A stretch of 25,574 nucleotides of DNA from an uncultured Ignavibacteriaceae bacterium (GCA_964612385.1 CAZTDB010000002.1:1-25574), one strand, 5' to 3'. Shown: positions 7,489 to 24,380, numbered from the stretch's first letter. Notes: generated by a model from the letters alone, not told the origin. Numbers and translations: made by a program.

Positions 7489-7630
7489 AAACCTTAGTAA
7501 CAAAGTAAACAACAAAATACCCGGACATATCTATAGATTCCTTGAATTACTTTATAGATCAAACAATAAAAATTTTTATGATATTAATAAGGTTAAGCGT
7601 TTGGGAGGCATGTTTTATTACTTCACTTTT
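7489..7630. repeat. Degenerate copy of long inverted-repeat element H
   Basis: Left arm AAACCTTAGTAAC..AGTAAACAACAAAATACCC matches 8618-8652; right arm is eroded (TAATAAGGTTAAGCGTTTGG). Confidence 0.6.
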
Positions 7631-8445: not shown

Positions 8446-8600
8446 ACCTTTACCTGTGGGCTACATTGGGATTGTCAGAACGATCCTTTGGAGTAGTCTT
8501 TTTAGTTATGGTATTGATGGCAGCTTAAAGCTTAGAGTATTGAGAGAGTGAAGTTCCTGATAGCCAAGCGAAATAAAGAATATTTTTGTGTGGGTTAAAT
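8446..8600. repeat. Repeat unit P-M, copy 1
   Basis: ACCTTTACC..GGGATTG..GTAGTCTTTTTAGTTATG..TAAAGCTTAGAGTATTGAG..GAAGTTCCTGA..CAAGCGAAATAAA.AATATTTTTGTGTGG; homologous to 9015-9256, 10701-10855 and 12643-12790. Confidence 0.85.
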
Positions 8601-8617
8601 TATAGCAATACGGCTAG

Positions 8618-8769
8618 AAAACCTTAGTAACCGAGTAAACAACAGAATACCCAACCTTATCCGTAGGATCCAGTGGATTACATCATTACCAGGCAAGCAA
8701 GCTTTTATGAAACTAAATAAGGTAATAAGGTTAGCTGTTTGGTTGGGTATGGTCAGTTACTAAGGTTTT
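8618..8769. repeat. Long inverted-repeat element H with an 18-bp insert
   Basis: 14-bp perfect terminal IR AAAACCTTAGTAAC/GTTACTAAGGTTTT; right inner arm AATAAGGTAATAAGGT; left inner arm split by the insert at 8660-8677. Confidence 0.85.
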
Positions 8770-9007
8770 GAACTCTCTCTCAATCTCTCCCTTGGGAAGG
8801 GAGAGACCTTATTATCATTTTAAAACTTTTCATTTATTGCTATTGTCAAAATGTAAAATACAAAGTCATAAATACCAATCCGAAGGATCCTTTGGACAAG
8901 TCCTTCGCTTGGTCCTATGGATCCTTTGGATAAGGGAAAAATTGCAAGTCACGGCGTAGACTCCAGGTTATCATCAGAAGTTTGTGTCGTAGCCGGAGGA
9001 AGAGTTC
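8770..9007. repeat. Inverted doublet repeat D, copy 2 (with nested inserts)
   Basis: Offset 518 bp from copy 1; right hairpin split by an 18-bp insert at 8913-8930; 8897-9007 recurs at 24009-24119. Confidence 0.8.
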
Positions 9008-9014
9008 TTTTAAA

Positions 9015-9256
9015 ACCTTTACCCGGAGGCAGCATTGGAATTGTCGGAACGATTCTTTGGAGTAGTCTTTTTAGTTATGAGCCTGTCTGCCGGTTTATCT
9101 CTTTACCTCACGAACGGAGACCAATGAAGGATGGTTTACATACCTTTGGTATGCAAGCAGGGTTGTTGGCAGTTTAAAGCTTAGAGTATAGAGGGAGAGA
9201 AGTTCCTGACGGCCTGGCGAATAAAAACATATTTTTGTGTGGATTGAAGTTTCTCA
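9015..9256. repeat. Repeat unit P-M, copy 2 (with an ~80-bp composite insertion)
   Basis: Colinear with 8446-8600 except for an extra block CCTGTCTGCCGG...CATACCTTTGGTATG..CAAGCAGG. Confidence 0.85.
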
Positions 9257-9303
9257 GACTAGTGAAAGAAGTTGCTGGAAGAATATTAGGAAGAAAAAAT
9301 TGT

Positions 9304-9648
9304 TTATATATCCTTAATCAGATAATCACTCAATCTTTTTAATAATTTCTTATGACGAAATTCCGAAATTCTGCCAATCTTTCCAGCAACCAAATTAATT
9401 GGAGCAACCGCCAGAAAGCTTAATCGAATAATTGAATCTTTAATTATTCCACTATCTTTAAAATCATTATCTTTCTCTGAAATCAGTTCATCGAAGTTTT
9501 TAATTAGTTGATGGATTTGGGTGCTTATACCACAAACCAGAAAATCATTATAGGGTGAAGGAAGCTGCCGAAGAAGTAATACTGGTCTTAATTTTGATTT
9601 TCCATCTGCCTGAGGAAGGGCAGCAAGTACTACATCCCCCTCTTTCAT
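9304..9648 (-). CDS. PemK/MazF family endoribonuclease toxin
   Basis: GDVVLAALPQADGKSKLRPVLLL...VCGIST...GIIKDSIIR matches PemK/MazF; 4-nt overlap with the upstream small gene. Confidence 0.88.
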   Translation of the reverse strand: MKEGDVVLAALPQADGKSKLRPVLLLRQLPSPYNDFLVCGISTQIHQLIKNFDELISEKDNDFKDSGIIKDSIIRLSFLAVAPINLVAGKIGRISEFRHKKLLKRLSDYLIKDI

Positions 9649-9908
9649 TTTTTATAATCCGGGTTGGGTTCTTTAATCATTGAAACAGAGTATTCTGGTT
9701 CATCTTCAGAATATGCTTTGTTTAACTGAGATAAAGATGAATCAGCCCACTCCTTTCTTTCGTCTGAATCTGATTCAGATTTTCGGAACGATCCTTCGGA
9801 AAGAACAGTAACAAGTAATTTATCTTTTGGATGAAGCTCAAATGGTGCATCAAGTATTATTGATTTGCCATCGAAATGTGCAGGCAGTGTAATAAGCGGT
9901 TTTTTCAT
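9645..9908 (-). CDS. Putative antitoxin of the PemK-type toxin (start moved to ATG 9908, MKKPLITL...)
   Basis: Small gene with acidic C-terminus (AYSEDEPEYS) overlapping the toxin start. The ORF-track extension to 9977 starts at TTG inside repeat H sequence. Confidence 0.7.
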   Translation of the reverse strand: MKKPLITLPAHFDGKSIILDAPFELHPKDKLLVTVLSEGSFRKSESDSDERKEWADSSLSQLNKAYSEDEPEYSVSMIKEPNPDYKK

Positions 9909-10101
9909 TTTAATCAGAGTTTTTTTGTTTAAAGATAGTAAATAAATGTTTAACTGAAAACAAAACCTTAGTAGCAAGTAAACAACCGAATAATCAAAAC
10001 CAAGGCAAACGGTATTGTTTATTTTTCTTGTATTTCATTTATGTAGGAACATCAATTATGATGTTCATTATAAAAAAAATTTTTATGCGGAGTGGACCTG
10101 A

Positions 10102-10527
10102 TTAATTTTCCGGGTACTTTGCCTGAAGCCAGGTTATAGTTTCCTTCATTAACATTTTCAATTTTCCCTGGTCTATGTCCGAAAGTTTTTTGATGTAAAT
10201 ACAAGCCTTGCCCATCTTGAAATTTCCGAGACCATCCAGCAGATGTTTGTGCTTGTCGAGTCCGGTAAACACATAGAGTGAAATCGCTGCCTTACGCGGA
10301 GAGAAGCCGATCATTGGCGCATCACCCTCATGACCACTGTCGTATTTATAATGATATCTTCCAAAACCGATAATACTCGGACCCCACATTCTGGGTTTGT
10401 GACCTGAGATTGATTGCATCAGTTTTATTATGTCATAACTGTCATTTCGCTTCTGCTTTGTGTCTGCAAATTCGTTAATAAATTGCAGAACATCTTTTTC
10501 CGTTACAGTTGTTTTGTTTTTTGCCAT
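10102..10527 (-). CDS. DUF1801 (YdhG-like) domain protein
   Basis: PRMWGPSIIGFGRYHYKYDSGHEGD..GFSPRKAAISLY..LGNFKMGKACIYIKKLSDID is the DUF1801 family pattern. Confidence 0.88.
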   Translation of the reverse strand: MAKNKTTVTEKDVLQFINEFADTKQKRNDSYDIIKLMQSISGHKPRMWGPSIIGFGRYHYKYDSGHEGDAPMIGFSPRKAAISLYVFTGLDKHKHLLDGLGNFKMGKACIYIKKLSDIDQGKLKMLMKETITWLQAKYPEN

Positions 10528-10700
10528 AGATTAATTCCTTTATTGACTCACTTTAAATTAATAAAATTTTTTGTATCCGCATGGAGTGTAAATTTTGTTG
10601 TTGTGGATTAGGTTGTACTTACTGCACATTTTCCCAGCAATAATATTTTTATCCTGTAAAATATTGGCTTAATAATAGTAATTAGTTTTGATCAAAGAAC

Positions 10701-10855
10701 CCTGCCTACCGGTTTACTTACCGAATTTATCCAACGCAGGTAGAGGTATTGCTGGCAGTGTTGATGGAAGTTTAAAGCTTGGAGTATTGAGGGAGTGAAG
10801 TTCTTGACAGACAAGCGAAATGAAAAATATTTTTGTGTGGATTGAATTTTGTCAA
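10701..10855. repeat. Repeat unit P-M, copy 3 (partial, begins in a CCTGCCTACCGG palindrome remnant)
   Basis: TTTAAAGCTTGGAGTATTGAGGGAGTGAAGTTCTTGACAGACAAGCGAAATGAAAAATATTTTTGTGTGGATTGAATTTT aligns without gaps to the other copies. Confidence 0.8.
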
Positions 10856-10986
10856 AATAATTAAATACCGTGATTGGCTTTCCATTAAATCACATATTTT
10901 TAATTTCCTATAATACAATAACTTATCTATCCCTTCCTCTTTTTCGTCGGTTTGTTTTTAATAAGAAAATAGAATAAATTAACATA

Positions 10987-11042
10987 ATAAACTAAAAACC
11001 ATACTTCATTATAAACTATAAATTAAGCAACACAATAAACTA
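10987..11042 (+). promoter_or_regulatory. Three ATAAACTA direct repeats at 24-bp spacing upstream of the Fic gene (possible operator)
   Basis: ATAAACTA at 10987, 11011 and 11035; ATG at 11050. Confidence 0.45.
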
Positions 11043-11049
11043 AAATATA

Positions 11050-12576
11050 ATGGCAGCACCACACCAAAAATTAGCTCAGTCCCTTGAAGTGTTAAAGCAA
11101 TTCCAGGATAAGAATGGAGTAGCAATAATAAAATCTGATGCACTTTCAAGAACCCATAGAGAACGACTGTTGAAAAATGGTTTCATCAAAGAAGTCATGA
11201 AAGGGTGGTACATTTCAAACAATCCGCAGGAAAGAAAGGGTGAAAGTACAGCCTGGTATTCGGCTTTTTGGAAATTTTGTTCTGTTTACCTGAATGATCG
11301 TTTCGATAAGGACTGGTGCGTTTCGCCCGACCAATCAATATCATTGCATTGCGAAAACTGGACGATACCAAAGCAGTTGTTGATTCGTTCCTCCAAAGCA
11401 AGTAATAATGTTACCAACCTTTTATTTGATACATCACTTGTAGATGCAGTATTAACTATGCCTGCAGAAACAGATATTATTGAAAAGAATGGCATACGTA
11501 TTTTCTCTTTAACCTCTGCCTTGTTGGCCTGTACGCCGAATTTCTTTTCACAAAATCCAATAGATGCCCGGACAGCACTAACCGGTGTAAAAGATGCTTC
11601 AGAAATACTGGTACCGCTTCTTGATGGAGGTAATTCCGTTATTGCAGGGAGGCTGGCAGGTGCATTCAGAAATATCGGAAGAGACCGCATTGCTGATGAA
11701 ATTATTAAAACTATGAAAGCAGCCGGTTATGATATACGTGAAAATGATCCGTTTGAAAAAAAGCTTCAATATACTTTTACAGACCGCTCCACTTCTCCGT
11801 ACGTAAACAGAATAAAATTGATGTGGCAGCAGATGCGTGAACCTATACTAAAATATTTTCCCAAACCACCTGGTATTCCCACAGATAAAACCTCTTATTT
11901 CAAACTTGTTGATGATAATTATAAAACTGATGCATACCATTCATTATCTATCGAAGGTTACAGGGTCACATCAGAACTGATAGAACGTGTAATGGGCGGT
12001 AACTGGAACCCGGACAGAAATGAAAAAGATAATGAGCAGAAAAATGCTCTTGCTGCCCGCGGCTATTTTCTTGCTTTTGAAGCTGTAAAAAAAAGTATAG
12101 CAAAAATATTTGAAGATGAAAATCCCGGGAAAGTAGCAGACGATGATCACAGCGATTGGTACAGAGAAATGTTTAGCCCATCTGTAACAGCAGGCTTATT
12201 ACGTACCTCTGATCTTGCCGGCTACAGGAATTCACAGGTTTACGTTTCTAACTCAAATCATATTCCTATGAACTGTGATGGTGTCCGGGATGCAATGCCG
12301 GTTTTATTTGATATGCTAAAGGACGAAAAAGAGCCGGCTGTCCGGGCAGTGCTTGGACATTTTATTTTCGTTTACATTCATCCCTATATGGATGGTAACG
12401 GAAGAATAGGCAGATTTCTGATGAATGTAATGCTGGCATCAGGAGGTTTCCCCTGGACCATTATAACTTTAGAAAGACGAAATGATTATATGAATGCTTT
12501 AGAAAAGGCGAGTGTTGAACAAAACATTAGTGATTTTGCTAAATTTATTGCGAGCCTCGTCAGCGAAAAAAAATAA
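11050..12576 (+). CDS. Fic family protein (508 aa) with long N-terminal extension
   Basis: Canonical Fic motif HPYMDGNGRIGR near the C-terminus; AYHSLSIEGY upstream. Confidence 0.92.
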   Translation: MAAPHQKLAQSLEVLKQFQDKNGVAIIKSDALSRTHRERLLKNGFIKEVMKGWYISNNPQERKGESTAWYSAFWKFCSVYLNDRFDKDWCVSPDQSISLHCENWTIPKQLLIRSSKASNNVTNLLFDTSLVDAVLTMPAETDIIEKNGIRIFSLTSALLACTPNFFSQNPIDARTALTGVKDASEILVPLLDGGNSVIAGRLAGAFRNIGRDRIADEIIKTMKAAGYDIRENDPFEKKLQYTFTDRSTSPYVNRIKLMWQQMREPILKYFPKPPGIPTDKTSYFKLVDDNYKTDAYHSLSIEGYRVTSELIERVMGGNWNPDRNEKDNEQKNALAARGYFLAFEAVKKSIAKIFEDENPGKVADDDHSDWYREMFSPSVTAGLLRTSDLAGYRNSQVYVSNSNHIPMNCDGVRDAMPVLFDMLKDEKEPAVRAVLGHFIFVYIHPYMDGNGRIGRFLMNVMLASGGFPWTIITLERRNDYMNALEKASVEQNISDFAKFIASLVSEKK

Positions 12577-12642
12577 GATACATTTTTATTGGTAACGGCT
12601 CAGGAAAGAGTTGGGTTTGTTATGGAGATGAGCCTTTAAATT

Positions 12643-12790
12643 CTTTACCCTTTGTGCAGCTTTGGGATTGCCGAAACGATCCTTTGGAGTAGTCTTTTTA
12701 ATTATAGGTTGATAGCAGTTTAAAGCTTAGAGTACTGAGCGAGAGAAGTTCCTGACTGCCAAGCGAAATAAAAAATATTTTTATGTGGAT
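12643..12790. repeat. Repeat unit P-M, copy 4
   Basis: CTTTACCC..GGGATTG..GTAGTCTTTTTAATTATAG..TTTAAAGCTTAGAGTACTGAG..GAAGTTCCTGACTGCCAAGCGAAATAAAAAATATTTTTATGTGG. Confidence 0.85.
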
Positions 12791-12827
12791 ATTACCTGCA
12801 GCCTACTTTTTAGATTTGTTTTCGTGT

Positions 12828-13154
12828 TTATATCTTTTGAAGTAATGATAAGAGTTGCGGCAGGTTATTATTAACGGTATTCCATACAAGCTCAATGTTA
12901 ACTTCAAAGTATCCATGGATTAATCTGTTCCTCATTCCAATAATATCTTTCCACGGTACTTCAGGATATTTTAGTTTTATTTCTTCGGATATTTTTGAAG
13001 CGGCTTCTCCAATTATTTCAATTTCCTTAATTACAGAAAGAATGAGCATCCTGTTTTGAGAAAAATCTTTTTCAGAAATTTCATCAGTAAATGATAATGC
13101 TTCCTCTGCTGCATCAATCATATGCTGAATCCTGATTCTGTCTTCAGGCTTCAT
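12828..13154 (-). CDS. hepT: HepT-like HEPN ribonuclease toxin (DUF86)
   Basis: RX4HXY motif RNRLIHGY; EIIGEAAS..PEVPWKDIIGMR. Confidence 0.9.
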   Translation of the reverse strand: MKPEDRIRIQHMIDAAEEALSFTDEISEKDFSQNRMLILSVIKEIEIIGEAASKISEEIKLKYPEVPWKDIIGMRNRLIHGYFEVNIELVWNTVNNNLPQLLSLLQKI

Positions 13155-13440
13155 ATTTAACTTTTGCTTCTTTTACAATAGTATCTCTGAAATATCTGCT
13201 TAGTTCTTCGGGTGTGCGAAGATCAACTTTTACACCGATTATTTCAGAAAGTTCACGTTCCAGTCTTGCCACATCAAGTAAACCGTAGCCGGTATTTTTC
13301 TCAAACTCTACCAGCAAATCAATATCACTTCCTACACTATAAGAATTTTTTAAATAAGACCCGAACAAAGAAAGTTTTCTAATCTTATTTGCTTTGCAAA
13401 AATCTTTAAGTTCTTTTGACTTTTTGGTTAATATATCCAT
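13144..13440 (-). CDS. mntA: MntA-like minimal nucleotidyltransferase antitoxin
   Basis: GSX10DXD motif in LFGSYLKNSYSVGSDIDLLVEF; overlaps the hepT start. Confidence 0.9.
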   Translation of the reverse strand: MDILTKKSKELKDFCKANKIRKLSLFGSYLKNSYSVGSDIDLLVEFEKNTGYGLLDVARLERELSEIIGVKVDLRTPEELSRYFRDTIVKEAKVKYEA

Positions 13441-13559
13441 AACGTTTGATTTTTTTTTACAATTTAAATTTATTCATTTGCGGGCTGCTATGAAAATGGA
13501 ATTTGTATCTTAAAAAACATAAAAATACTTTTTTACACGGAATGAAAGTCGAAGTATTA

Positions 13560-13674
13560 GTCTGGAAGTGGCAGGCTCTGAATGTAATACACGGGAAATG
13601 TTCCTTATGGACCCTTAAGGAAACAGGTTAAGGTTTAGTAATACTGTAAATAAAAGTTAATGCTAAAATGAAGG
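13560..13674. repeat. Repeat R, copy 1 (empty form)
   Basis: GTCTGGAAGTGG..CTGAATGTAATACAC.GGAAATGT..CTTATGGACCC..GGAAACAGGTTAAGGTTTAGTAATACTGTAAATAAAAGTTAAT..AAATGAAGG; homologous to 14478-14685. Confidence 0.8.
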
Positions 13675-13766
13675 AGCGAGAATATGTTAGGAAGTTCTTG
13701 TCCGCATTTGGAGGAGTTCCTGAAAGCCTTGGGAATATAATAACCTGGGGTGAAGTTTTATGCTTG

Positions 13767-14015
13767 TTATTTATAAATATCTTTTCTATGTCCGATTCGA
13801 AGTATAATTACTTTGTCTTTATCAATGTCAAAGATAACCCTGTAATCCCCTATTCTGAATCTATATGAACCAATGAGTGGATTAGATAATTTTCTGCTAT
13901 TACCAACAGGATCATTAATTAAAGTTTTTTACTTTTTTTTAATTGTTACCTTAACATCTTCATTTAATTTATCAATATCCTTTATAGCTCTTTTTACAAG
14001 AATGATTTTGTACAT
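13767..14015 (-). pseudogene. RelE/ParE family toxin gene with in-frame TAA at codon 29
   Basis: Manual translation: MYKIILVKRAIKDIDKLNEDVKVTIKKK*KTLINDPVGNSRKLSNPLIGSYRFRIGDYRVIFDIDKDKVIILRIGHRKDIYK*. TAATG overlap with the antitoxin; internal stop at 13929-13931. Confidence 0.88.
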
Positions 14016-14206
14016 TAAAGTACTTCATCAATGTCTTTGAAATCCCCTGCTTTGTAATCTTCCCGTGCTTCACGAATGGAATTAATATAATCCTTGCTTG
14101 ATAGTGCTTTTAAATCTTCGAGATAATCTTCAATTGCTTCCTGAACAGATTTTGAAATTAATTCTTTTAACTCGTCAATAGTTAGTTCCGATACTCTTGT
14201 GTTCAT
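14015..14206 (-). CDS. Putative antitoxin of the RelE-type toxin
   Basis: 63-aa acidic protein (SIREAREDYKAGDFKDIDEVL) translationally coupled to the RelE-like frame; GGAG RBS. Confidence 0.78.
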   Translation of the reverse strand: MNTRVSELTIDELKELISKSVQEAIEDYLEDLKALSSKDYINSIREAREDYKAGDFKDIDEVL

Positions 14207-14298
14207 TTATTGCTCCTGTTTTAGAATTGGATTTTCATTGCTATAATTTTAATAAATATTTCGGCGAATAAAAAGAGTTGATTAAATACATTTGAAAA

Positions 14299-14429
14299 TA
14301 ACCTTAGTAACACAGCACACAACCCCGGGATAAAAACCTTATTACCTTATTAAAAAGTGAATATTTTTTTAGAATGAATAAGGTAATAAGGTCAGTGGTC
14401 TTGGTTACAGGATTTCGTTACTAAGGTTA
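14299..14429. repeat. Long inverted-repeat element H, intact copy
   Basis: 13-bp outer IR (14299-14311/14417-14429), 16-bp inner IR (14336-14351/14377-14392), 24-nt unpaired spacers on both sides, 25-nt central loop. Confidence 0.88.
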
Positions 14430-14477
14430 ATACTTATGGAAAACCATATCGTTACTTGGTGTGCGAGTCTAAACCCT

Positions 14478-14685
14478 GTCAGGAAGTGCCTGATTCTGAA
14501 TGGAATACACCTGTAATGTCATCCTGCCTGCCCCTTGGGGATGTTGCCTGCCCTCTGTAATGAAATGAAGGAGGGTTGAAGGAAATGTCATCCTGAGCTT
14601 GTCGAAGGATGTCTCTTATGGACCCTGACGGAAACAGATTAAGGTTTAGTAATCCTGTTAATAAAAGTTAATACTTAAATGAAGG
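14478..14685. repeat. Repeat R, copy 2 (filled with two palindromic insertions)
   Basis: Colinear with 13560-13674 apart from an ~70-bp composite at 14511-14580 and the 24-bp TGTCATCCTGAGCTTGTCGAAGGA at 14586-14609. Confidence 0.8.
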
Positions 14686-14774
14686 GAAAGCATTTGGCAG
14701 GGAGTAGTCTTGACAGTCTTGAAAAGTTATATAATTAAATAGTGTAATTTGGTTGGTTGTAGATAGGAAATATT

Positions 14775-15179
14775 TTATTCTTCAAATCTATTACGGTTCA
14801 TATCAGAATATGTACTATAATCGGTTGTAAGTTCTTCACCCTTTTTTATATCTCTAATCGCAAAAAATAATAAATTTTTATCCGCAGCAACGTTTGGCTC
14901 CTGTGAATAATTAAGATACCAGGCAACAGTTAATTGATTAAAATTTTTAGGGCATCCGTACGAACTACCTTTTTTAACACAAAAGTCTTTATACAATTTT
15001 TTGATTTCTTTTGGTAAATGATTTAACCTGCTTTTTTTAATCCAAACTAAATCTTCATCATCACCATAAAATATATATGTTCCTTTTTTAATATTTTTAA
15101 TTGCAAATACACCAACTCCATGAATTTTGGAAGGAGCTAGACGTGTAAATACTTTATCATGGGGAAGTTTATTTTTCAT
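14775..15179 (-). CDS. SET domain-containing protein (putative protein lysine methyltransferase)
   Basis: SKIHGVGVFAIKNIKKG, YLNYSQEPNV (NHS..PN position) and AIRDIKKGEELTTDY. Confidence 0.88.
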   Translation of the reverse strand: MKNKLPHDKVFTRLAPSKIHGVGVFAIKNIKKGTYIFYGDDEDLVWIKKSRLNHLPKEIKKLYKDFCVKKGSSYGCPKNFNQLTVAWYLNYSQEPNVAADKNLLFFAIRDIKKGEELTTDYSTYSDMNRNRFEE

Positions 15180-15188
15180 ATAACTTTA

Positions 15189-15761
15189 TTACCATTTAAA
15201 GTATGGAAACTTTTTATCGTATTTATATTTATTTGCATTGCGAATTACCCAGTAATAAATAAATAAACTAATTATTATAGGTACAATTATAAAAAATACA
15301 AAATTATTATGATTTACAAGAAATTCAATTGAGCTGAGGATTGTTAAAATATATTCGATAGTCGCAAATACAGAAAGCCAGAATGCTATAATATAAGGTA
15401 TCCAGGATTTCCAACAATCAGCATCTTTCAACCATTCTTCTAATCTGCATTCTGTAAAATCCTTTTGTATAACTTCCAGAGAAATTTGACCATAATACCA
15501 CGCAAGCTTTGACCTCTGTTTATAAAATAAAGCTGAAGCGATAAATAATGCAACAGATGCCAATATTAAAAACCAAATTCCCTTATCAGTTAAATTACTT
15601 GCTACATTGAATGCAACAGAATTTTTATCAATGGAAATTATTCTTTCAATTACTATTGAAGGTACAGCAACACAAAATGCAGATAATATTCCCATGATTG
15701 TCATTTCTTTATCCAAATAGTCTAAATAATATTTAACATCTGAATTCATAATAGTCTCCAT
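15189..15761 (-). CDS. Hypothetical membrane protein (about 4 hydrophobic segments)
   Basis: 190 aa with four long hydrophobic stretches; 9-nt gap to the SET gene. Confidence 0.75.
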   Translation of the reverse strand: METIMNSDVKYYLDYLDKEMTIMGILSAFCVAVPSIVIERIISIDKNSVAFNVASNLTDKGIWFLILASVALFIASALFYKQRSKLAWYYGQISLEVIQKDFTECRLEEWLKDADCWKSWIPYIIAFWLSVFATIEYILTILSSIEFLVNHNNFVFFIIVPIIISLFIYYWVIRNANKYKYDKKFPYFKW

Positions 15762-15809
15762 TAGAAAATCAAATATTGACGGATATTGCTTCTAAAATGC
15801 ACCTGCGTT

Positions 15810-16556: not shown

Positions 16557-16653
16557 AAAAAATTACCTTTTGGAAATTAATGTTTGTAAAAAAAATATTT
16601 TTATAGGGATTACATATGATTTTGAATTAATTGAACTCTCTCTAAATCTCTCC

Positions 16654-17271
16654 TTATCTACCTGCTTCATTAGCAACCTCTTCAATCCAATTAGAAAAAT
16701 TCGAATTGCCATCATCCATTATCCAACAATATGTATCAAATTTTTCTGAGAATCGAAAAAATTTTCCAAAGTCATTAAATATTAACCAGTCAGCAAAATA
16801 GAGTGTGTTCGATTTTTTATTATTGATCGTGGGTAGTTCTTTATAAATAGTCCATTTCCGGTTTAATAATTCGTAGAAATGAATTCTTTCTCCATCCTCT
16901 GAAATTTCGAACCCAAGCTTATCAAGTGGATTTATGCCCCTTGGAGTTATACCTATTTTACCTTTAATTCTATTGATGTGTATTCCTAAAATTCCATTAC
17001 CACGTTCAAAACTTTTAATTATCTCATAATTAATGCACTTTCTATTAGCCGTACTTTCACCGATTAAAACAGTTGTAATTGAAGTTTTCTTCAGTCCACT
17101 TTCAATAAGTTGCTTTATAGCATGATCTTCTTGTGTTTTAAGTTTTTCCCAGATTGAACCATCAACAAAAGTCTCATTACTATGTCTCATTAACCAACTA
17201 TTACGAACTACATTTACTTTGAAGTTCTTAACATCTTCATATGCAAAACTAAAGAAGACAAATCTCGCCAT
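16654..17271 (-). CDS. ThsB-like TIR domain protein (DUF1863 type)
   Basis: VFFSFAYED..VNVVRNSW..IKQLIESGLKKTSITTVLIG..YEIIKSFERGNGILGIHI; catalytic Glu position (YEI) retained. Confidence 0.88.
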   Translation of the reverse strand: MARFVFFSFAYEDVKNFKVNVVRNSWLMRHSNETFVDGSIWEKLKTQEDHAIKQLIESGLKKTSITTVLIGESTANRKCINYEIIKSFERGNGILGIHINRIKGKIGITPRGINPLDKLGFEISEDGERIHFYELLNRKWTIYKELPTINNKKSNTLYFADWLIFNDFGKFFRFSEKFDTYCWIMDDGNSNFSNWIEEVANEAGR

Positions 17272-17284
17272 AATTATTATCCAA

Positions 17285-17944
17285 TCAATCTATAGTTTTT
17301 GAAATATTGTAGTCTTCACTGTTCTCTTTAATATGAAACGCTATATCAATGTATTTATCAATATCCTCATTAAAGTCCCTCCACCTTACACAAAATATAT
17401 AAGAAAAATAACCATTGTAAATAGTACTTCCTTCACACTGCCTTGTATCAGGATTTTTGATATTAAACATATTGTCTCTCAATATTTTGAAGAGACGGTC
17501 TGTGTGGTAAGTAGTGCTATTGCAATTTGGATTATAAGTAAGAAAGTATTCGTAGCTACCATTTTCATCTGGTAACACAACAGCTAGAATTGCGTTGGTT
17601 TTACTAGTTCTTCCCGCCCTAGACATTTCTTTCAGAGAATAAGATATTTCCCATGGTATCCATTGATCAGTTTCAGCGAGAGTATAATCTTTCATTCCTT
17701 TTGATATTAAAACAATAGTAACAGTACTGTCAAAAATTTTATTTTTTAATTTTGTCTCTATCGTTTCGTCCTTAAAATCTTCCAAGCTCTCATTATCATT
17801 TTCACCCTTATAAATGTAATCTTCATCATCTAGCAAATCTTGAAGTTTGTCAACATAATCTCTAGCGGTAGAAAAGTAATTGCCATCTAAACCTTGGACT
17901 TGAGAATCTGAGTATTTATAAGTAACAAAAATTTTCTTGCCCAT
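17285..17944 (-). CDS. ThsB-like TIR domain protein (DUF1863 type)
   Basis: KIFVTYKY..KIFDSTVTIVLIS..WIPWEISYSL..NAILAVVLP. Confidence 0.88.
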   Translation of the reverse strand: MGKKIFVTYKYSDSQVQGLDGNYFSTARDYVDKLQDLLDDEDYIYKGENDNESLEDFKDETIETKLKNKIFDSTVTIVLISKGMKDYTLAETDQWIPWEISYSLKEMSRAGRTSKTNAILAVVLPDENGSYEYFLTYNPNCNSTTYHTDRLFKILRDNMFNIKNPDTRQCEGSTIYNGYFSYIFCVRWRDFNEDIDKYIDIAFHIKENSEDYNISKTID

Positions 17945-17967
17945 TTTTGATTTTCTCCCTTTAATAG

Positions 17968-18558
17968 TTAAATGTAATCTCTCAATAAATCTTTTAACAA
18001 TGACATATAGGCATAGTCATTTTTAAGCCTGACATCAAGTTTAGTTTTCATATTATCATATATCAGTTTGGCAGCTGCGCCAGTACTTGCAAATGGTAGC
18101 AGTAAAGCATTTGGATGTGATTCCTGAAATAGTTTAAATTCTTCAATAACCCCCTCCATGCCCCCAATAAAAATTCCAACTTTAAAGTCATTATCTTTAA
18201 TCATAACATTTCTCAAATCAACCATACTTTTTTCACGATTTATGTTTGCTGGAATAAGTTTTATATCCTCAAAAAAGAAATTATCCTTTGGAAATGACTT
18301 TTCAAAGAACTTTGATTGATAAAGTGTAACATGTTCCTTCAAATCAATTTTCATAGCACTTAAAACAAATCTGATTAAAGGTGTAATTGCTGGATGTCCG
18401 CCCCAAATCAATTTTGCATTTGGGATAACTACAGTCGCTAATGCCCTTACCGAATCTCTTATTGCAATAATATCAGCAGTATCATAAAATTTTCGATCCC
18501 TATCTGGTAATGGAATGCTTGCAGCAAGGAATACTTTATTTAAATTTTTTTTAACCAA
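17968..18558 (-). CDS. Stand-alone SLOG domain protein (LD cluster3 type)
   Basis: VFLAASIP..IAIRDSVRAL..LIWGGHPAITP..TLYQS..GIFIGGMEGVIEEF..STGAAA, the SLOG nucleotide-binding pattern. Confidence 0.85.
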   Translation of the reverse strand: MVKKNLNKVFLAASIPLPDRDRKFYDTADIIAIRDSVRALATVVIPNAKLIWGGHPAITPLIRFVLSAMKIDLKEHVTLYQSKFFEKSFPKDNFFFEDIKLIPANINREKSMVDLRNVMIKDNDFKVGIFIGGMEGVIEEFKLFQESHPNALLLPFASTGAAAKLIYDNMKTKLDVRLKNDYAYMSLLKDLLRDYI

Positions 18559-19712
18559 TGCTCTATCTCAATAATTTTTATAGTCCGTACAGGAAGATAT
18601 TGCTCTAACCAAGCTAAATGTTTAAGCCATTTTTCTCTGATATTCCTGTGGTCAAATAATAAATATGTTTCAGAAATATTTTTTGATTTTATACGATTTA
18701 TTATCTCCTCCGATTGGTTATACGTGAATGCTTGTGGAACTCCTATTGTGGGAATAATTAAAACTCTCTTTTTTTGCTTGTTCTGCAGAGTAATAAATTT
18801 TTCCGGATGTAAGCGTGGATGAATTCTCATTTTATTAGAAGCTTTAATAAATTCAGTAGTAATGTTATTACGTCTAGCAGCAAGGCTTCTAGCTCTCCAC
18901 GATTCCACACTGCTTACAATTCTTTTTATAGTCTTTTCCCTAAGACTACTTTTGGAACTATTGTAATTTCGATTTGCAAAATCAGTTGCTTTCAATTTAA
19001 AAGGAAGACTTAATTCTGCTATGTCTTCTGGCTTATGGTTTGGCCAGATAATGTGCAATATACCTATAGACATCGAATTAGCTCTGGCAAGTTCTTTGGG
19101 CGTCCACTCACTATTTAGAAATCCAGGTGTATTTAACAGTACTACTGTATCAGTATCAGCAAGTCTATGCCATAATTCATCTTGAAAGGGATCTCCATAC
19201 CTAACGCTATGTGTATCTAAAAATACATCAAATCCAGCTTTTTCAAGTTGTTCGTAAAGTTGAATCGCAACTGCACTAGATTCAACCCTCCTATAGCTTA
19301 TAAATATTCTCCTTGATAATCTTAATAAACTCAAACCCTCTAGTATACAACTTACAAGTGGTTCTATTTCTAAATTTGATGATAAACCAAAACTATTAAT
19401 GCCTTCTAACTCTTTTGGAACATAAGAGCTAAAACTCTTTAGATTATCTACTACTGGCAGGATTAAAACAGCATCGGTAATTAATTTCCTAATGATATCT
19501 AAATTAGTGAACCTATTTTTAGCATTACCAAAATAAAGACAATATGATGGTACATTGGCTCTATATTCTTTATAAAAATTTTTCTTATTTAGAATTATGA
19601 CATTGCTCTTATCAAATCCAAGCTCACGAAGCCGTTTATAAAACGTCTTCATTATTTTATTGATACGAAGATTCTTATATCCTAGCAATATTAATTGATA
19701 TTTATATCTCAT
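18540..19712 (-). CDS. TIR (TIR_2-like) protein with extra N- and C-terminal domains
   Basis: RIFISYRR..AIQLYEQLEKAGFDVFLD..SEWTPKELARA; about 130-aa N-terminal extension. Confidence 0.87.
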   Translation of the reverse strand: MRYKYQLILLGYKNLRINKIMKTFYKRLRELGFDKSNVIILNKKNFYKEYRANVPSYCLYFGNAKNRFTNLDIIRKLITDAVLILPVVDNLKSFSSYVPKELEGINSFGLSSNLEIEPLVSCILEGLSLLRLSRRIFISYRRVESSAVAIQLYEQLEKAGFDVFLDTHSVRYGDPFQDELWHRLADTDTVVLLNTPGFLNSEWTPKELARANSMSIGILHIIWPNHKPEDIAELSLPFKLKATDFANRNYNSSKSSLREKTIKRIVSSVESWRARSLAARRNNITTEFIKASNKMRIHPRLHPEKFITLQNKQKKRVLIIPTIGVPQAFTYNQSEEIINRIKSKNISETYLLFDHRNIREKWLKHLAWLEQYLPVRTIKIIEIEHWLKKI

Positions 19713-19722
19713 TTATCTTTGA

Positions 19723-20322
19723 TCAATAATTCTTATTTAACCAATCTTTTAATGGGGTAATATATCTTATACCTTCTTTATTTGTTGGTTCACAAACATA
19801 ATAACCTTGTGGTATCAATTTATTCGAAACCCTATATTGACTTTTTCCGTCCTCATAATCAATCTGAGGATAAATACGAAGATATTCGTTTCCTTTATAG
19901 TCAGAGTTGGGCGTTCCTTTTTCTTTCACAGGTAATATAGCTATTCTACTGATATAAGTAGTTGTATCTCCTAAGCCTAACTCCCAATTACACCAAAATG
20001 ATTCAATGGCTTTATTAGTGGCTAATAAAATAAATTTATCACAAAACCGAATAACTTCTTTTATCCTTTTTGCTGTTTCTCCAGATGTCTGTTCTGGCAT
20101 TTTATTATCCATACTATCAATATAAATTTTTACTCCAAACCTTTGGAGTAACCCAATTACACCTCTGAGATCATTTAAGTCTTCATGTTTATGCGATATG
20201 AACACCGTTGGTTCGTAGGGTCTTTGAGAGTCGGTGCTAAATTTTTGGATTTCTCGTAGAGATTCATTAATAAATGAGTCACTTGCTCTATAATTGTTAA
20301 AATATTCTCTTTCAAAAATCAT
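19723..20322 (-). CDS. TIR domain protein
   Basis: VFISHKHED..GVKIYIDSMD..IRFCDKFILLAT..SFWCNWELG. Confidence 0.88.
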   Translation of the reverse strand: MIFEREYFNNYRASDSFINESLREIQKFSTDSQRPYEPTVFISHKHEDLNDLRGVIGLLQRFGVKIYIDSMDNKMPEQTSGETAKRIKEVIRFCDKFILLATNKAIESFWCNWELGLGDTTTYISRIAILPVKEKGTPNSDYKGNEYLRIYPQIDYEDGKSQYRVSNKLIPQGYYVCEPTNKEGIRYITPLKDWLNKNY

Positions 20323-20344
20323 AATTCTTCCTTAATAATAATCC

Positions 20345-23300
20345 TCACCCCACCACCCTCTTCACCAACCTATCAATTTCCTTCATCTCCGCTGCAAGGT
20401 ATTTTTTTATATCAAGACGGAGTTTGCCAAGACGTGTGGCAGTTAGTTCTTTTTGAGGTGGATTGTCTTCCAAAAATTTTACTGCTTTTTTATGTGCTCT
20501 CTCGCTTAACTCTGCTAGCTTTAAATGCACTTCATTTGTTTCATCAAAGCGGGGGAAGTAAATGTCGAGTATCTTTTTGTGAACGTGTCTTGCACCAAAG
20601 TGTCCTCTTGCCTGAAAATCTTTTATTAACTTATTTGGAATTGAAGAGTTCAATATTGATGTTAAATAAAAAGCAACTTTTATATCATTTGTATAGAAAA
20701 TATATGTTACACTTTCTGCTAAAAAATTTAAGTCTATACTGTTCCTATTAACAACAGTTGCATTCGCATCTTTTGCTGACGAATTATACAAAACCATATA
20801 AAGTGCATCCAGATTTTGTTCGGTTAATCCTCTCTGAAAATCTATTCTGCCATTTGCAGTCATATTTTTTGATTTTTCAGTTTTATTTATCTCCCAAATG
20901 TTTTCAGCATTCTTAAACCATTTAGATGAATGCAAATATCCTTCCTGCATTAGTTCATTTGCTGCCAGTAGCTTGATTTTTTTATTACCCTCATTATTTT
21001 TTTCAATTAAAATCGGCAGGACAACCAAATCAGGTTTATACAAAGCAAAAGGTAAAATACTTTTTGCCAGTGCCGTCCTGAAAATAAATTTACTTTCAAT
21101 TCTTCCTGTAAACTCCAATCCTTTCCAGGGTTTCTTTGCATCGTTCTTTATTGCCTCGGAAGTTTTAATATTTATTATTCTATCCTCAAAATCCTGCGGA
21201 ACATCTTGCGTTAATTCAATAAAATAAAAACACCGGGGAACGATTGTAGCACCCTGCTTAAAATGTTTCTTATAAGGATTTTCTGTTTCGTTGGATTTCG
21301 TTTTTTTACTTGATATTGCAGAAGCTTTTCCCTGTTTTACATAATACCATTTAACGGCTTCTTCAGTAATATTTTCTTTTGCAGTTAAAAGATTGCAGTT
21401 ATGCTCAGTCAGCTTCCCGCTAAATATATTTCCGTGTAAACCAGAGAAAGGAACTTTTTTCTTTTCATACTTTTCAGCAAAGAAAACACAGCTTGGAATT
21501 CTGAACAGAGGAGAAACATCTTTCAAATCCCATATCTGTTTAAGCTTAAACCCGACAGCTTTTCCGCTTCTTGTGTTATCGTGGTGGTCGGCACTAAAGA
21601 AGCTTCTCGGCAGAACAAAAGCAATCTGTCCATGCTTGCTTAAAAAGTAGCTGCTGCAGTAAACCATAAATATTGCTGCAATTTCAAGATGAGGAAAGTT
21701 TGCAACCTTAACCGGCTTCACCTCATACTTATCAGCAAGTGCATTAAGTATATTCTGGTAATCTTCATTCCTTATCGAGCTGTAAGTAAACCAGGGCGGG
21801 TTGCCTATAACATAATCAAACTTACCAGCAAGGAAATAAGGTTTGTAGAGGTTCTGCACAATAAACTTCCAGATGCTGTCTCTTCCTTTTTCTTTAACAA
21901 CTTTTAATCCTGTATAAATTTTATAAAAACTTTCAATTACCTGCTTATTTGCCCCCGATTTATTTCCGTTCTTTGCAAAATGCTTCCTGAAAATATTTTC
22001 AAAGACTTCTTCCGATTCTTTTTTCTTTCCCATTGTTTGTTCTGCAAGGTCATCGCAGATTCCGAGCGCTTCATCGAACAGCTTTACATCTTCAAGTATC
22101 TGCGTGGTTAAGTGATACTTCTCTTTATCAATGTTCAGAAGAAATTCATTGCCGAAAAGATTCTGCACACCTTCAGGTGCAAGAAGCGTGTTTGCAAGTA
22201 ATATGTTAAGGTAAACAGGTTTCTTTGCGTTAATAATTTCCTTACCGAGTGCAAGAAGCAAAGTTGTTTTTGCTATCTGCACACTAAGCGGGTGAATATC
22301 TATTCCGTAAACCTGCTCATTTAATTCTTCAACGGTTACATCGGGATTAAGCTCTTTAATCCTGTGAATAGCCGCTCTTAAGAAAGACCCGCTTCCGCAG
22401 GCAGGATCGAGTATCTTGTTTGTTTTGCTAAACTGAAACTCTTTAACAATTCTTTCGCAAAGCCAGTCGGGGGTGTAATACTCGCCGAGAGAATGTCTTG
22501 TATCAATATCAATCAGCTCCTGGTAAACACCTTTAAGAATATCTTCGTCAACATTATCAAATTCAAAGTTGGAAATTTCCTGTGCAATAAGCCGGAAAAC
22601 TTTTTTCAGGTTGTTGAAACTCCGCTCAGTATTAATCCAATGGAAGAAATCGTTATCAACAAAATTGCGGATGTTATACCTGTGAAATATTGTGCCGTCG
22701 AGAATTCCCTTAAGTTCGGAATCGTCGATAAAATCATCGTTGGATACTACACAGTAAGCGAGCATTTTGGAGATTACGCTAAGGTAAGTGTGAATAAGAA
22801 AGATGTTATCACGCGCATCAAATCCGCCGTAAGCAATGCTTAAGAATTTACTCCACTGCTCGTAAGAAACCTGCACTTCGCCGTATTTCTTAGCTTCTCT
22901 GAACCAATTATTCAATTCACGGAATGACTCAATGAAAATATTGCTTTGATATCCAAAGGCTTCTTCAATTCTTTTAAGCGTTGCACGTTGCTTTTCTTCC
23001 TTGAAAAGAAAGCGGTCAATCCAGTAATAAAATTCCTCTGTATTTCTTTCATTTAGTACAAACGAAGCGCTTTTAACTTCGTTAAGAATCAGTTCGTGTT
23101 CCTGTAATTCTTCTATTCTATCAAGCGAGGAAACATCGGGGGCAAAAACTTTCCATGTAATAAAATCTGATGCAATCAGAGTAAAATTATAACTCTCGCC
23201 GGACCGCAATTGTCCTAACAGATATCCGGCAAGCTGTTCTTTGGCGTGCTCTAATGTAAGGTTAAGGTTATTTTCAAATTCAATGATGATATGATTATAA

Positions 23301-23524
23301 AGTGTATCCGCACTACCTTTATGAATTTTATCTTTTCGGGGAATATTTAGAACGGTCGTTTCAGCCCCAAGTGTAATTTTATTAACAAGACGAAGAATTT
23401 CTTCATCTTGAATATACAGCCGGTTTAATAAATCTTTGAATGCTTCTTTCTTAGTAAACTCTTTATTAGCTGCTTTAACTTTGGATAAATACTCTTTTAT
23501 AAGAAAAGTTTTGTTGCTTTTCAT
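20345..23524 (-). CDS. Single-chain restriction-modification enzyme (type IIG-like) with N6-adenine methyltransferase
   Basis: Motif I DPACGSGSFL, motif IV GNPPW, GEYYTP; N-terminal ADTLY..IIIEFE..EQLAGY nuclease-like segment; long C-terminal specificity region. Confidence 0.88.
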   Translation of the reverse strand: MKSNKTFLIKEYLSKVKAANKEFTKKEAFKDLLNRLYIQDEEILRLVNKITLGAETTVLNIPRKDKIHKGSADTLYNHIIIEFENNLNLTLEHAKEQLAGYLLGQLRSGESYNFTLIASDFITWKVFAPDVSSLDRIEELQEHELILNEVKSASFVLNERNTEEFYYWIDRFLFKEEKQRATLKRIEEAFGYQSNIFIESFRELNNWFREAKKYGEVQVSYEQWSKFLSIAYGGFDARDNIFLIHTYLSVISKMLAYCVVSNDDFIDDSELKGILDGTIFHRYNIRNFVDNDFFHWINTERSFNNLKKVFRLIAQEISNFEFDNVDEDILKGVYQELIDIDTRHSLGEYYTPDWLCERIVKEFQFSKTNKILDPACGSGSFLRAAIHRIKELNPDVTVEELNEQVYGIDIHPLSVQIAKTTLLLALGKEIINAKKPVYLNILLANTLLAPEGVQNLFGNEFLLNIDKEKYHLTTQILEDVKLFDEALGICDDLAEQTMGKKKESEEVFENIFRKHFAKNGNKSGANKQVIESFYKIYTGLKVVKEKGRDSIWKFIVQNLYKPYFLAGKFDYVIGNPPWFTYSSIRNEDYQNILNALADKYEVKPVKVANFPHLEIAAIFMVYCSSYFLSKHGQIAFVLPRSFFSADHHDNTRSGKAVGFKLKQIWDLKDVSPLFRIPSCVFFAEKYEKKKVPFSGLHGNIFSGKLTEHNCNLLTAKENITEEAVKWYYVKQGKASAISSKKTKSNETENPYKKHFKQGATIVPRCFYFIELTQDVPQDFEDRIINIKTSEAIKNDAKKPWKGLEFTGRIESKFIFRTALAKSILPFALYKPDLVVLPILIEKNNEGNKKIKLLAANELMQEGYLHSSKWFKNAENIWEINKTEKSKNMTANGRIDFQRGLTEQNLDALYMVLYNSSAKDANATVVNRNSIDLNFLAESVTYIFYTNDIKVAFYLTSILNSSIPNKLIKDFQARGHFGARHVHKKILDIYFPRFDETNEVHLKLAELSERAHKKAVKFLEDNPPQKELTATRLGKLRLDIKKYLAAEMKEIDRLVKRVVG

Positions 23525-23744
23525 TTACACAATTCTAAGTTATTTCTCGTTTACGGTGCAACTTAGCAAGAATTAATTTAATTGAAAATAGAGGGATTGC
23601 AAAAGTAAGGAATACGGCTGAAGTTAAAGTATCGCTAATCTCATGGAGATTCAGGATATGTTCAATACTACCATATCTAATTTAAAATAAATTGAACTCA
23701 CTCTTAATGAGGCTGTCCAATCCAAAGGATCGTTCCGAAAAGTT

Positions 23745-23912
23745 CTTTGTGACGTTTTGTGCCTTCGAGTCTTTTGCCAAAGGCATTCCCTCAGAAGTGG
23801 CTAAAGTTTGAAAACACTTGATAATCAAGATTTCTATCCACAGAATCGTATCGATTTGCCACGTTCGAAGAATCCTATGGAAAGGCACAAATACACAAAG
23901 AATCTCACTAAG
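23745..23912. repeat. Imperfect inverted-repeat element G built from CACnAAG subrepeats, both arms carrying inserts
   Basis: Left CTTTGTGACGTTTTGTGCCTTCGAGTCTTT[22 bp]GTGGCTAAA; right TTTGCCACG[18 bp]AAGGCACAAATACACAAAGAATCTCACTAAG. Confidence 0.7.
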
Positions 23913-24008
23913 ATAATCTATTTTTTGGTCACCCTCACTTTATAGTAATTGTTAACCTACCAAAAAAATGTTCTGTCAACATATTAAGCGTGAAGACATT
24001 GCCTCAAA

Positions 24009-24119
24009 CAAGTCCTTCGCTTGGTCCTATGGATCCTTTAGATAAGAGAAGGATTGCTAGTCACGGCGTAGACTCCAGGCTATTATCAGAAGTTTGTGTC
24101 GTAGCCGGAGGATGAGTTC
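24009..24119. repeat. Right half of repeat D, near-identical to 8897-9007
   Basis: 111 bp, 8 substitutions, no gaps, same nested inserts. Confidence 0.9.
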
Positions 24120-24126
24120 CTCCCGC

Positions 24127-24377
24127 CTCACCACCTTCTTAACCAACCCATCTATCTCCTTTCCAAAGGATCCTTCGGACATCTCTTCTGCAAGGTGTTT
24201 CTTTATATCGAGACGGAGTTTGCCTAAACGCCTGCCTGTTTGGCAGGTAAATATGGCGCTTAGTTCTTTCCGAAGGATGGCGTCCATTTGCTGTGGATTG
24301 TCTTCTCCCAAAGGGATGCAAAAGCATAAATATTTTGCTGTTTTTTGTGTGCTGCTTAGCTTAGTTCTGTAAGCTTT
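24127..24377 (-). pseudogene. Decayed 3' fragment of a paralog of the RM enzyme gene with four short insertions
   Basis: Aligns to about 20345-20522 (KLAELSERAHKKAVKFLEDNPPQKELTATRLGKLRLDIKKYLAAEMKEIDRLVKRVV); one premature TAA, a 1-nt deletion, and inserts of 18, 21, 18 and 21 nt. Confidence 0.88.
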
Positions 24378-24380
24378 TTA

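Follow-up and report, generated by a model that had tools for sequence, protein, structure and literature searches.

What kind of process writes strings of about 18 nucleotides, each consisting of two tiny adjacent hairpins, exactly into other repeats and into genes of a bacterial chromosome? The question is raised by a 25,574-nt contig of an uncultured Ignavibacteriaceae bacterium (GCA_964612385.1, CAZTDB010000002.1:1-25574), here called the window, which is contig C2 of an Ignavibacteriales metagenome-assembled genome (MAG; handle G000; 2.96 Mb in 537 contigs, 37% GC, 78% complete). An earlier note on this DNA had listed 14 such strings, each of which is found where it was placed and only once in the window, and had proposed that an active process inserts them as structure-defined micro-elements. 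We find that they very probably form a real family of non-autonomous mobile micro-elements of 17-22 nt, referred to here as units. As the best overall explanation we propose, with a probability of roughly 0.55, that these mobile micro-elements are single-stranded hairpin DNA moved in trans by an enzyme of the HUH/Y1 type.

The case for insertion starts from sites that are present both filled and empty. The unit TCCGTAGGA+TCCAGTGGA (8660-8677, no strand assigned) lies in an arm of an H element, which is an IS200-like end, where it splits ACCTTA^TTACC; the same sequence is uninterrupted at about 14336. The tip of the host hairpin CCTTCGCTTGG^TAAGGGAA is occupied by TCCTATGGA+TCCTTTGGA (8913-8930, plus strand) and again by TCCTATGGA+TCCTTTAGA (24025-24042, plus strand), the latter being a duplicate of the 8913 unit together with its host hairpin, and is left empty in the unoccupied hairpin at 8366-8386. 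The 3' end of the restriction-modification (RM) gene (20345-23524) recurs in decayed form at 24100-24380, and this copy, compared with both the intact gene end and its counterpart in a second genome (G001, below), carries four clean inserts of 18, 21, 18 and 21 nt. These are the palindromic-type unit TCCAAAGGA+TCCTTCGGA (24162-24179, no strand assigned; empty site at 20384), a 21-nt insert of a second small-hairpin family, CCTGCC...GGCAGG (24231-24251, no strand assigned), the unit TGGACGCCA+TCCTTCGGA in its minus-strand reading (24269-24286) and the 21-nt unit TCCCAAAGGGA+TGCAAAAGCA (24306-24326, plus strand). The empty sites that the earlier note had claimed for 8660, 8913, 24025, 24162, 24269 and 24306 were all verified, and to them can be added the 21-nt insert of the second family and the unit TCGGAACGA+TCCTTCGGA (9783-9800, plus strand). 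This last unit lies in frame in an antitoxin gene (9645-9977, minus strand), where it adds the residues SEGSFR to a protein of 87 residues; they are absent from the G001 orthologue and from 15 homologues of 79-81 residues, and with these as outgroups the sequence comparison polarises the unit as a gain.

Comparison between genomes extends the evidence beyond the window. The nearest neighbour of the MAG, JAGUYG01 (DeMMO6_2; handle G001), belongs to the same genus, a penicillin amidase protein being 90% identical in the two; the G001 sample comprises 1.14 Mb, of which 714 kb align to G000 at about 79% identity. In the length histogram of indels between the two genomes there is a peak at 18 nt (22, against 12 at 17 nt and 5 at 19 nt), and the clean 18-bp indels are units, some present only in G000 and others only in G001. 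Among strict units in the aligned DNA, 12 are confined to G001, four to G000 and three are shared with 2-3 substitutions between the copies; given both lineage-specific and shared, diverged copies, the family is old and turns over, its copies decaying like neutral DNA. Within G000, inserts of 17-20 nt make up 114 of the 170 clean paralogous indels of at least 9 nt, with a mode at 18, and most of those listed consist of two adjacent mini-hairpins, a minority being single-hairpin inserts of other families. A unit of G134, which represents another family of the class, is absent from both of its congeners, G089 and G061. Lineage-specific gains have thus taken place in two families of the class, in three genomes at least, and the active process proposed by the earlier note is supported by duplication-free presence and absence between congeners in both directions, among paralogous repeats and in a second family.

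The inserts themselves are exact. Target duplication was seen at none of the filled/empty pairs examined, the verified empty sites of the window included, as the earlier note had claimed. Every insert is full length, decayed ones (still exactly 18 nt) included, and there are no 5'-truncated copies and no tails. Units also nest within units: the inner one splits the outer at TC^CTTYGGA, and its removal from TCGGAACGATC[...]CTTCGGA restores a perfect outer unit. An assembly artefact can be discounted. Logan contigs, assembled independently from one subsurface run (2017) and one rock run (2024), show zero differences from the unit-bearing sequence of the window wherever the listed pieces cover it, and orthologous copies shared by the two congeners have diverged by substitution. 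No listed Logan piece spans positions 23487-24290, so the units of the RM fragment rest on the window assembly.

The anatomy of the unit was first described as two equivalent halves, each a 3-bp stem with a freely varying loop, and has here been refined. Eight strict twins, meaning two adjacent T-xy-NNN-y'x'-A 9-mers with G or C in both stems, occur in the window against an expectation of 0.22 +/- 0.48 (maximum 3; first-order Markov simulation, 300 runs). Genome-wide, TCCTTTGGA, TCCTTCGGA, TCCAAAGGA and TCCGAAGGA each have 85-96 copies, 5-6 times the order-3 Markov expectation, and rank among the most enriched 9-mers of the genome. Unit counts stand at 177 in G000 (60 per Mb) and 81 in the 1.14 Mb of G001 (71 per Mb), with zero in the reversed-sequence control of either genome. 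When TCCTTYGGA on either strand was taken as a seed (364 seeds), an adjoining hairpin was found on the 5' side in 258 cases and on the 3' side in just 75, which gives the unit an orientation, the variable hairpin (9-11 nt) coming before the near-constant half TCC-TTY-GGA. Read on the opposite strand the order is TCC-RAA-GGA (TCCRAAGGA) and then the complement of the variable half. The two halves are accordingly not equivalent.

Covariation of the stems within a half, as described in the earlier note, is borne out. The 9-mer directly 5' of TCCTTYGGA forms a perfect 3-bp hairpin in 106 of 286 unique contexts, whereas shifting this 9-mer by 2-5 nt leaves just 2-10 perfect hairpins, and six stems are each represented by at least three independent contexts (TCC/GGA, TCG/CGA, TCA/TGA, TGC/GCA, TTC/GAA and CTC/GAG). 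The loops do not vary freely as had been thought, since 62 of the 106 variable halves (58%) carry a G-N-A loop against about 6% by chance. The variable half is constrained only to keep a stem of 3-4 bp, usually with a GNA or AAA loop, while the loop base Y of the constant half is T in about half the copies and C in about half in all lineages. Size classes of 17 (8+9 or 10+7), 18 (9+9), 19, 20 (11+9) and 22 (11+11) nt are found, 18 nt being the commonest, and the longer variants noted at 23775 and 24306 fall in the size classes of the family. Units start with T, end with A and have about 50% GC; GATC stands at the centre of most, and most contain GGATCC (TCGGAACGATCCTTCGGA is one unit sequence). 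Mismatches in the stems gave no strand signal (11 of the G.T type, 8 of the A.C type), and by eye the loop base Y did not covary with the first flanking base in the flank list.

The distribution across the Ignavibacteria class, for which 401 genomes were scanned, is patchy and burst-like. The exact pattern TCGGAACGATCCTTYGGA has 29 matches in G000 and 80 in G001 but none in a further 29 genomes from the family and order, and TCSRAASGATCCTTYGGA is present in 25 of the 401 class genomes (reversed control, 0 of 401). Bursts are seen in three families, represented by G000/G001, by G134 (113+114 strand hits) and by G183 (35+33), whose congeners have 0-4 copies, and units identical to the letter occur in all three. 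Across all species genomes outside the class there are singleton matches at roughly chance level. Phages were considered as a vector and rejected, the 13 matches in IMG/VR being at or below chance by a rough estimate that assumes a size for the database.

The flanks of the units, previously described as sharing no sequence, do carry a weak context. In a logo of 125 unique contexts of oriented units, the 5' side shows C at -4 (0.39), T at -3 (0.50) and T at -2 (0.48), with C nearly absent at -1, and the 3' side shows A at +1 (0.48), A at +2 (0.74) and G at +4 (0.62). The resulting CTTK^AARG is roughly symmetric and reaches at most 0.75 bit at any position; palindromic-type units have a like pattern on both sides. 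The preferred insertion context is therefore a loose palindrome CTTN^NAAG, weak but clear. Base pairing between the two flanks does not account for the logo, their complementarity being equal to that expected from the marginals. A separate preference is for hairpin tips. Perfectly complementary flanks of 5 bp or more enclose 13.9% of units, whereas two controls gave about 3%. The host hairpin family GGGCT..AGCCC exists in three forms: one is empty, one has TCGGAACGA+TCCTTTGGA at the tip, and in the third an unrelated left half takes that position, which argues for repeated hits on hairpin tips.

Stop-free frames of 150 codons or more take in about 83% of random positions but just 16 of 112 strict units, from which it follows that coding DNA is strongly depleted of them. 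Where a unit does persist in a gene, it keeps the reading frame and lengthens a loop of a live protein by six residues, often S-x-G-S-F-G. The gene for argininosuccinate lyase, argH (L347; G000 C273:1574-2983), carries an in-frame unit giving six extra residues in the C-terminal domain relative to the one solved homologue aligned (PDB entry 2e9f); units lie inside the Pfam domains of a Mur ligase (L348) and an N6/N4 DNA methylase (L346), and a CheR-TPR protein has another in frame. Units of G183, G089 and G061 that fall in long frames read SEGSFG or PKDPSE. Among the C-terminal sorting domains of type IX secretion (loci L341, L342, L349 and L350), a subfamily with GTA or GCA loops occupies one surface loop (YEVEF-SVGSFG-N) in at least six paralogues (G000 contigs C11, C13, C102, C131, C263 and C323) and the next loop in one more case (C325). 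The G001 orthologues lack two of these copies. This pattern could reflect recurrent targeting, gene conversion among paralogues or precise loss.

How do the units move? In the mechanism that we favour, the unit would travel as folded single-stranded DNA, an HUH/Y1-type enzyme of the host (RAYT or IS200 class) would cut it out or copy it and rejoin it in trans, and the targets would be single-stranded sites such as extruded or lagging-strand hairpin loops. We put the chance that single-stranded hairpin DNA is the substrate at about even, and suggest an HUH/Y1 enzyme as the mover only tentatively. Exact ends, lack of target duplication, ends defined by base pairing and a preference for hairpin tips together form the signature of single-strand transposition, and it is for this reason that HUH/Y1 is preferred. 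Every unit-rich genome encodes several Y1/RAYT genes (ten Y1 hits in G001). The window itself has a gene for a REP-associated tyrosine transposase (RAYT; 313-894, plus strand; NF047646, 86 bits), which is 93% identical to its G001 orthologue, is flanked by its own GTAG-type REP hairpins, GCACAGAC..GTCTGTGCTAC, at 262-295 and 901-962, and represents a candidate class of mover only. On G001 contig C109, the REP hairpins AAACCGTT..AACGGTTT that flank another RAYT gene come in two forms, one lacking a unit and one, T-shaped, whose loop holds a unit.

A number of results weigh against this mechanism. The HUH/RAYT candidate named in the earlier note remains the best guess, yet it failed the test of co-occurrence: no Y1 or RAYT enzyme was singled out as co-varying with the units by any co-occurrence test run. 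RAYT-family genes are present in 321 of the 401 class genomes (a tally that takes in one unpublished genome, G387, on which no claim depends) against 25 with units, and because RAYTs are near-ubiquitous, class-wide co-occurrence is uninformative. Individual candidates fared no better. The window RAYT has a homologue of 70% identity in unit-poor G089 and one of just 36% in unit-rich G183, close homologues of the IS200-like TnpA associated with the H elements occur only in unit-poor G089, and the RAYT of G001 C109 shows no correlation with unit abundance. Around 20 Y1 loci in three genomes, 59.6 kb of flanking DNA contain four units, which equals background, G001 C109 being the exception. No strict 5' target tetranucleotide of the kind used by IS608 stands out in the unit flanks, which show just the weak context given above. 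IS200/IS605 elements show orientation bias with respect to replication, and the orientation of units relative to GC skew and gene strand gave odds ratios of 1.0 and 2.1, which is no bias (n=49, using proxies on draft contigs). The 3-bp stems are much smaller than any hairpin we know to be bound by a Y1 transposase. Logan contigs of four runs contained no insertion polymorphism or 18-bp indels, a weak negative as contigs drop rare variants. Finally, bare units fold no better than shuffles under nearest-neighbour DNA rules; these rules may underestimate the structures, as C-GNA-G triloop mini-hairpins are unusually stable in DNA (PMC13037366, PMC3201870).

In a rival reading, the units are mobilised by an unrecognised dedicated enzyme that is neither HUH/Y1 nor a DDE transposase nor a reverse transcriptase (RT), for example a small nuclease-ligase or a recombinase acting on a symmetric 18-bp duplex centred on GATC, the gene for which would spread horizontally and so produce bursts. 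We think this unlikely as it stands and give it nearly equal weight to the HUH step. It fits the patchy bursts, with letter-identical units in three families (G000/G001, G134 and G183) and 0-4 copies in close relatives, the failure of any Y1, RAYT or RT gene to track abundance, the symmetric target context CTTN^NAAG around pseudo-symmetric units with GATC central in most, and the lack of a detected strand bias. Set against this, six different covarying stems are not explained by sequence-specific recognition of a duplex, and nor is the preference for hairpin tips; no candidate gene has been identified, whole proteomes of unit-rich and unit-poor genomes not having been compared. A wider possibility, which we offer as speculative, is that the units are the substrate of an undescribed transposition chemistry, in which an enzyme that belongs to none of the known transposase families would recognise single-stranded mini-hairpin DNA by its structure and copy it in without duplication; the system would be spreading horizontally through the Ignavibacteria and continuously writing six-residue loops into proteins, including the essential ArgH.

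Template switching would dispense with a transposing enzyme altogether: a replicative or repair polymerase stalled at a hairpin tip would copy an ectopic, unit-bearing loop and switch back. The preference of units for hairpin tips is what such a process should give, and a 9-nt insert, CCGAAAGCA, whose first half is complementary to the adjacent flank TTCGG, completes a hairpin with it as expected; several unrelated small-hairpin insert families coexist and no enzyme correlate was found. Template switching predicts variable end points and microhomology, however; at dozens of unrelated sites, non-hairpin coding sites among them, the ends do not vary by a single base, and the junctions largely lack microhomology. 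Polymerases and hairpins exist in every genome, so that template switching also leaves unexplained the restriction of letter-identical units to 25 of 401, and we regard it as improbable.

Movement through RNA, in which a small unit-bearing transcript would be reverse-transcribed and integrated, is less probable still. Such a route was proposed for the double-hairpin elements of Allomyces, which like the units have no target duplications (PMC2800124), and TCCTTCGGA includes C(UUCG)G, a motif that is stable in RNA. The only RT of G000 is, however, a Cas6-RT-Cas1 fusion of CRISPR adaptation, and the single RT hit of G001 has a stop within it; truncated copies and tails are lacking, decayed inserts still measuring exactly 18 nt, and the GNA loops point to structure in DNA rather than RNA. 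The RT suggested by the earlier note is for these reasons disfavoured. So is its other suggestion, that the 18-mers are footprints of two 9-nt ends left by the excision of a larger element, to which we attach very little probability. Both halves do start with T and end with A like paired termini, but among clean paralogous indels and collinear pairs of aligned segments up to 4 kb there is no larger insertion bounded by the two halves, removal of an inner unit restores the outer one, many variable-half subfamilies each occur at multiple unrelated sites, and the ends of the resident IS200-like element (the H element) look different. Least credible of all is an immobile functional signal (an uptake sequence, a protein-binding site or a terminator module) accumulating by selection or molecular drive, which would suit the strong over-representation, the roughly even split between T and C that all lineages show at one loop position and the mostly intergenic copies, whereas such signals arise by substitution and not as exact 18-bp insertions, make no sense inside argH, a Mur ligase, a DNA methylase or an antitoxin gene, and should not be free to decay as these copies are.

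If the units are mobile, as we consider very probable, to what known system are they closest? Among bacteria, the comparison points to the small dispersed repeats (SDRs) of the Nostocaceae as the closest analogue. Elhai et al. (2008, Genome Res 18:1484), who described SDR1-8 from Nostoc punctiforme and relatives, reportedly found SDRs inside other repeats and without classical target duplication. The units are likewise very small dispersed repeats, precisely inserted, duplication-free and nested in other repeats. They differ in size (17-22 nt with a mode of 18, against 21-27 nt, so that the ranges overlap just at the lower edge), in belonging to Ignavibacteriales, a host of another phylum, and in their layout of a constant and a variable half forming twin mini-hairpins, which occur in frame in housekeeping genes; by host and size the units thus stand apart from SDR1-8. 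In the accounts cited here, SDR5 is 21 nt long and inserted between bases 3 and 4 of HIP1, and the mechanism and function of SDRs are given as still unknown in 2026 (PMC4390886, PMC5861425, PMC13756078); one of these reports SDRs only in Nostocaceae (PMC5861425).

In structure, the closest analogue is the mitochondrial double-hairpin element. With these and the hairpin elements of sponge mitochondrial DNA, the units share two adjacent hairpins, mobility deduced from comparison of related genomes, occasional occurrence in genes and lack of a known mechanism. Paquin et al. in 2000 reportedly gave the mitochondrial elements a length of 26-79 nt. They are organellar and very GC-rich, unlike the units, which are bacterial and chromosomal, 18 nt long, about 50% GC and built on 3-bp stems. 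As the cited passages describe them, the double-hairpin elements of Allomyces and Schizosaccharomyces have no flanking duplication and an RNA route was proposed (PMC2800124, PMC10085805), and they were identified by requiring >75% GC over 35 bp (PMC10085805).

Other systems match less well. The classical miniature inverted-repeat transposable element (MITE), with terminal inverted repeats, target-site duplication and a length of at least 50 bp, is not matched by duplication-free units of 18 nt, which were rightly described from the start as too small for it. Rickettsia palindromic elements, reported by Ogata et al. in 2000, are said to be 100-150 bp long and to add 30-50 residues; they too are palindromic selfish repeats surviving in frame in live genes, whereas the units add only six residues. 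DNA uptake sequences spread by substitution or recombination without indels, and the units appear as 18-bp indels. Like the IS200/IS605 elements, the units have exact, hairpin-defined ends without duplication, for which a single-stranded mechanism is plausible, and an IS200-like element and miniature H elements reside in the same genomes; unlike them, the units are about ten times smaller, and their ends do not resemble those of the resident IS. Their flanks show a weak context in place of a strict target tetranucleotide, and the proxies used revealed no strand bias. The REP/REPIN-RAYT system (PMC3116915, PMC3733652) also consists of short hairpin repeats, mostly extragenic and without target duplication, in genomes that encode RAYTs, but the units carry no GTAG or CGTC tag (the true REPs of the window have CTAC/GTAG), their stems are 3 bp against 8-12 bp, they form no inverted doublets, they do not flank RAYT genes except at G001 C109, and their abundance does not follow the presence of RAYTs. 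Since the defining features of the SDR, mitochondrial and REP/RAYT systems fail, the units are best placed among very small mobile repeats defined by structure, as a distinct form and not as a member of a named family. They are among the smallest mobile DNA elements, and the first such that we found in the literature outside cyanobacteria and mitochondria.

The units matter first because they test the lower size limit of mobile DNA: 18 nt hold just two 3-bp hairpins, and whatever moves them must read structure plus about nine conserved bases. SDRs are the only comparable bacterial case and have been without a mechanism since 2008, and the present system gives a better handle through its sharp consensus, subfamilies with covarying stems and gains dated between congeners. 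Bursts in three families beside nearly unit-free sisters provide the comparison that phylogenetic profiling requires to trace the gene behind the movement. The units also act as a natural protein mutagen, writing flexible S-x-G-S-F-G loops in frame and perhaps hitting the type IX sorting-domain loop repeatedly. On the practical side, they fragment assemblies, may be mistaken for linker artefacts as most contain GGATCC, and confuse analyses of orthology and selection through indels that preserve the frame.

Units at the other positions of the window illustrate the range of the family. Those at 8475-8492 (plus strand; TCAGAACGA+TCCTTTGGA, with an A.C mismatch in the variable half), 9044-9061 (plus strand; decayed, TCGGAACGA+TTCTTTGGA) and 12671-12688 (plus strand; decayed, CCGAAACGA+TCCTTTGGA) are paralogues that go back to one ancestral insertion spread by duplication of the host repeat. 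A palindromic-type unit, TCCGAAGGA+TCCTTTGGA, stands at 8879-8896 (no strand assigned) and TTCGAAGAA+TCCTATGGA at 23864-23881 (plus strand), while the unit at 23775-23796 (plus strand), TGCCAAAGGCA+TTCCCTCAGAA, is a 22-nt representative of the 11+11 class whose clean relative is TGCCAAAGGCA+TTCCTTCGAAA. In its minus-strand reading the unit at 23721-23738 is TCGGAACGA+TCCTTTGGA and lies in a host repeat of which other copies hold TCAGAATGA at that place or are empty. At this one host-repeat site (8475 and 23721, with paralogues on contigs C16, C61, C185 and C321) the variable half is thus TCGGAACGA or TCAGAATGA, the TCAGAACGA of 8475 being an intermediate with one mismatch, and the three forms could have come about by compensatory changes in place, affecting both arms of the stem, or because different subfamilies hit the site repeatedly.

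Further tiny inserts with clean empty sites in G000 fall outside the unit family and are also small hairpins, namely CCTGCCTGCTGCAGGCAGG (19 nt, with a 12-nt relative), GTTTACCTAACTTTAGGTAG (20 nt) and ACCGAAGGTTCTTTATGA (18 nt). Because they behave alike, the inserting process may not be limited to a single sequence family.

Some neighbouring features deserve mention. The H elements of the window (7489-7630, 8618-8769 and 14299-14429) match the two ends of an intact IS200-like element of G001 (L123:3680-4240), in which an outer AACCTTAGTAAC repeat and inner ACCTTATT repeats flank the gene for a Y1 transposase of 146 residues, and on account of this match they look like gene-less miniature derivatives. 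The Cas6-RT-Cas1 fusion, the only RT found in the MAG, is a type III CRISPR adaptation protein of 949 residues (L287; G000 C20:6629-10240). Rfam and tRNA scans of the window returned no matches. A 164-nt direct repeat, 90% identical between its copies at 1479-1642 and 2042-2203, brackets a gene for a Rha-family regulator (1640-2182); the start of its second copy is an exact unit site, empty in the window (2036-2047, no strand assigned) and holding TCGAAACGA+TCCTTCGGA in the G001 orthologue. In the RM fragment (24126-24380), all four insert lengths are divisible by three, for which a chance of about 3% was estimated from the size spectrum of non-coding inserts, and the fragment may on that account still be translated, or have been so until recently.

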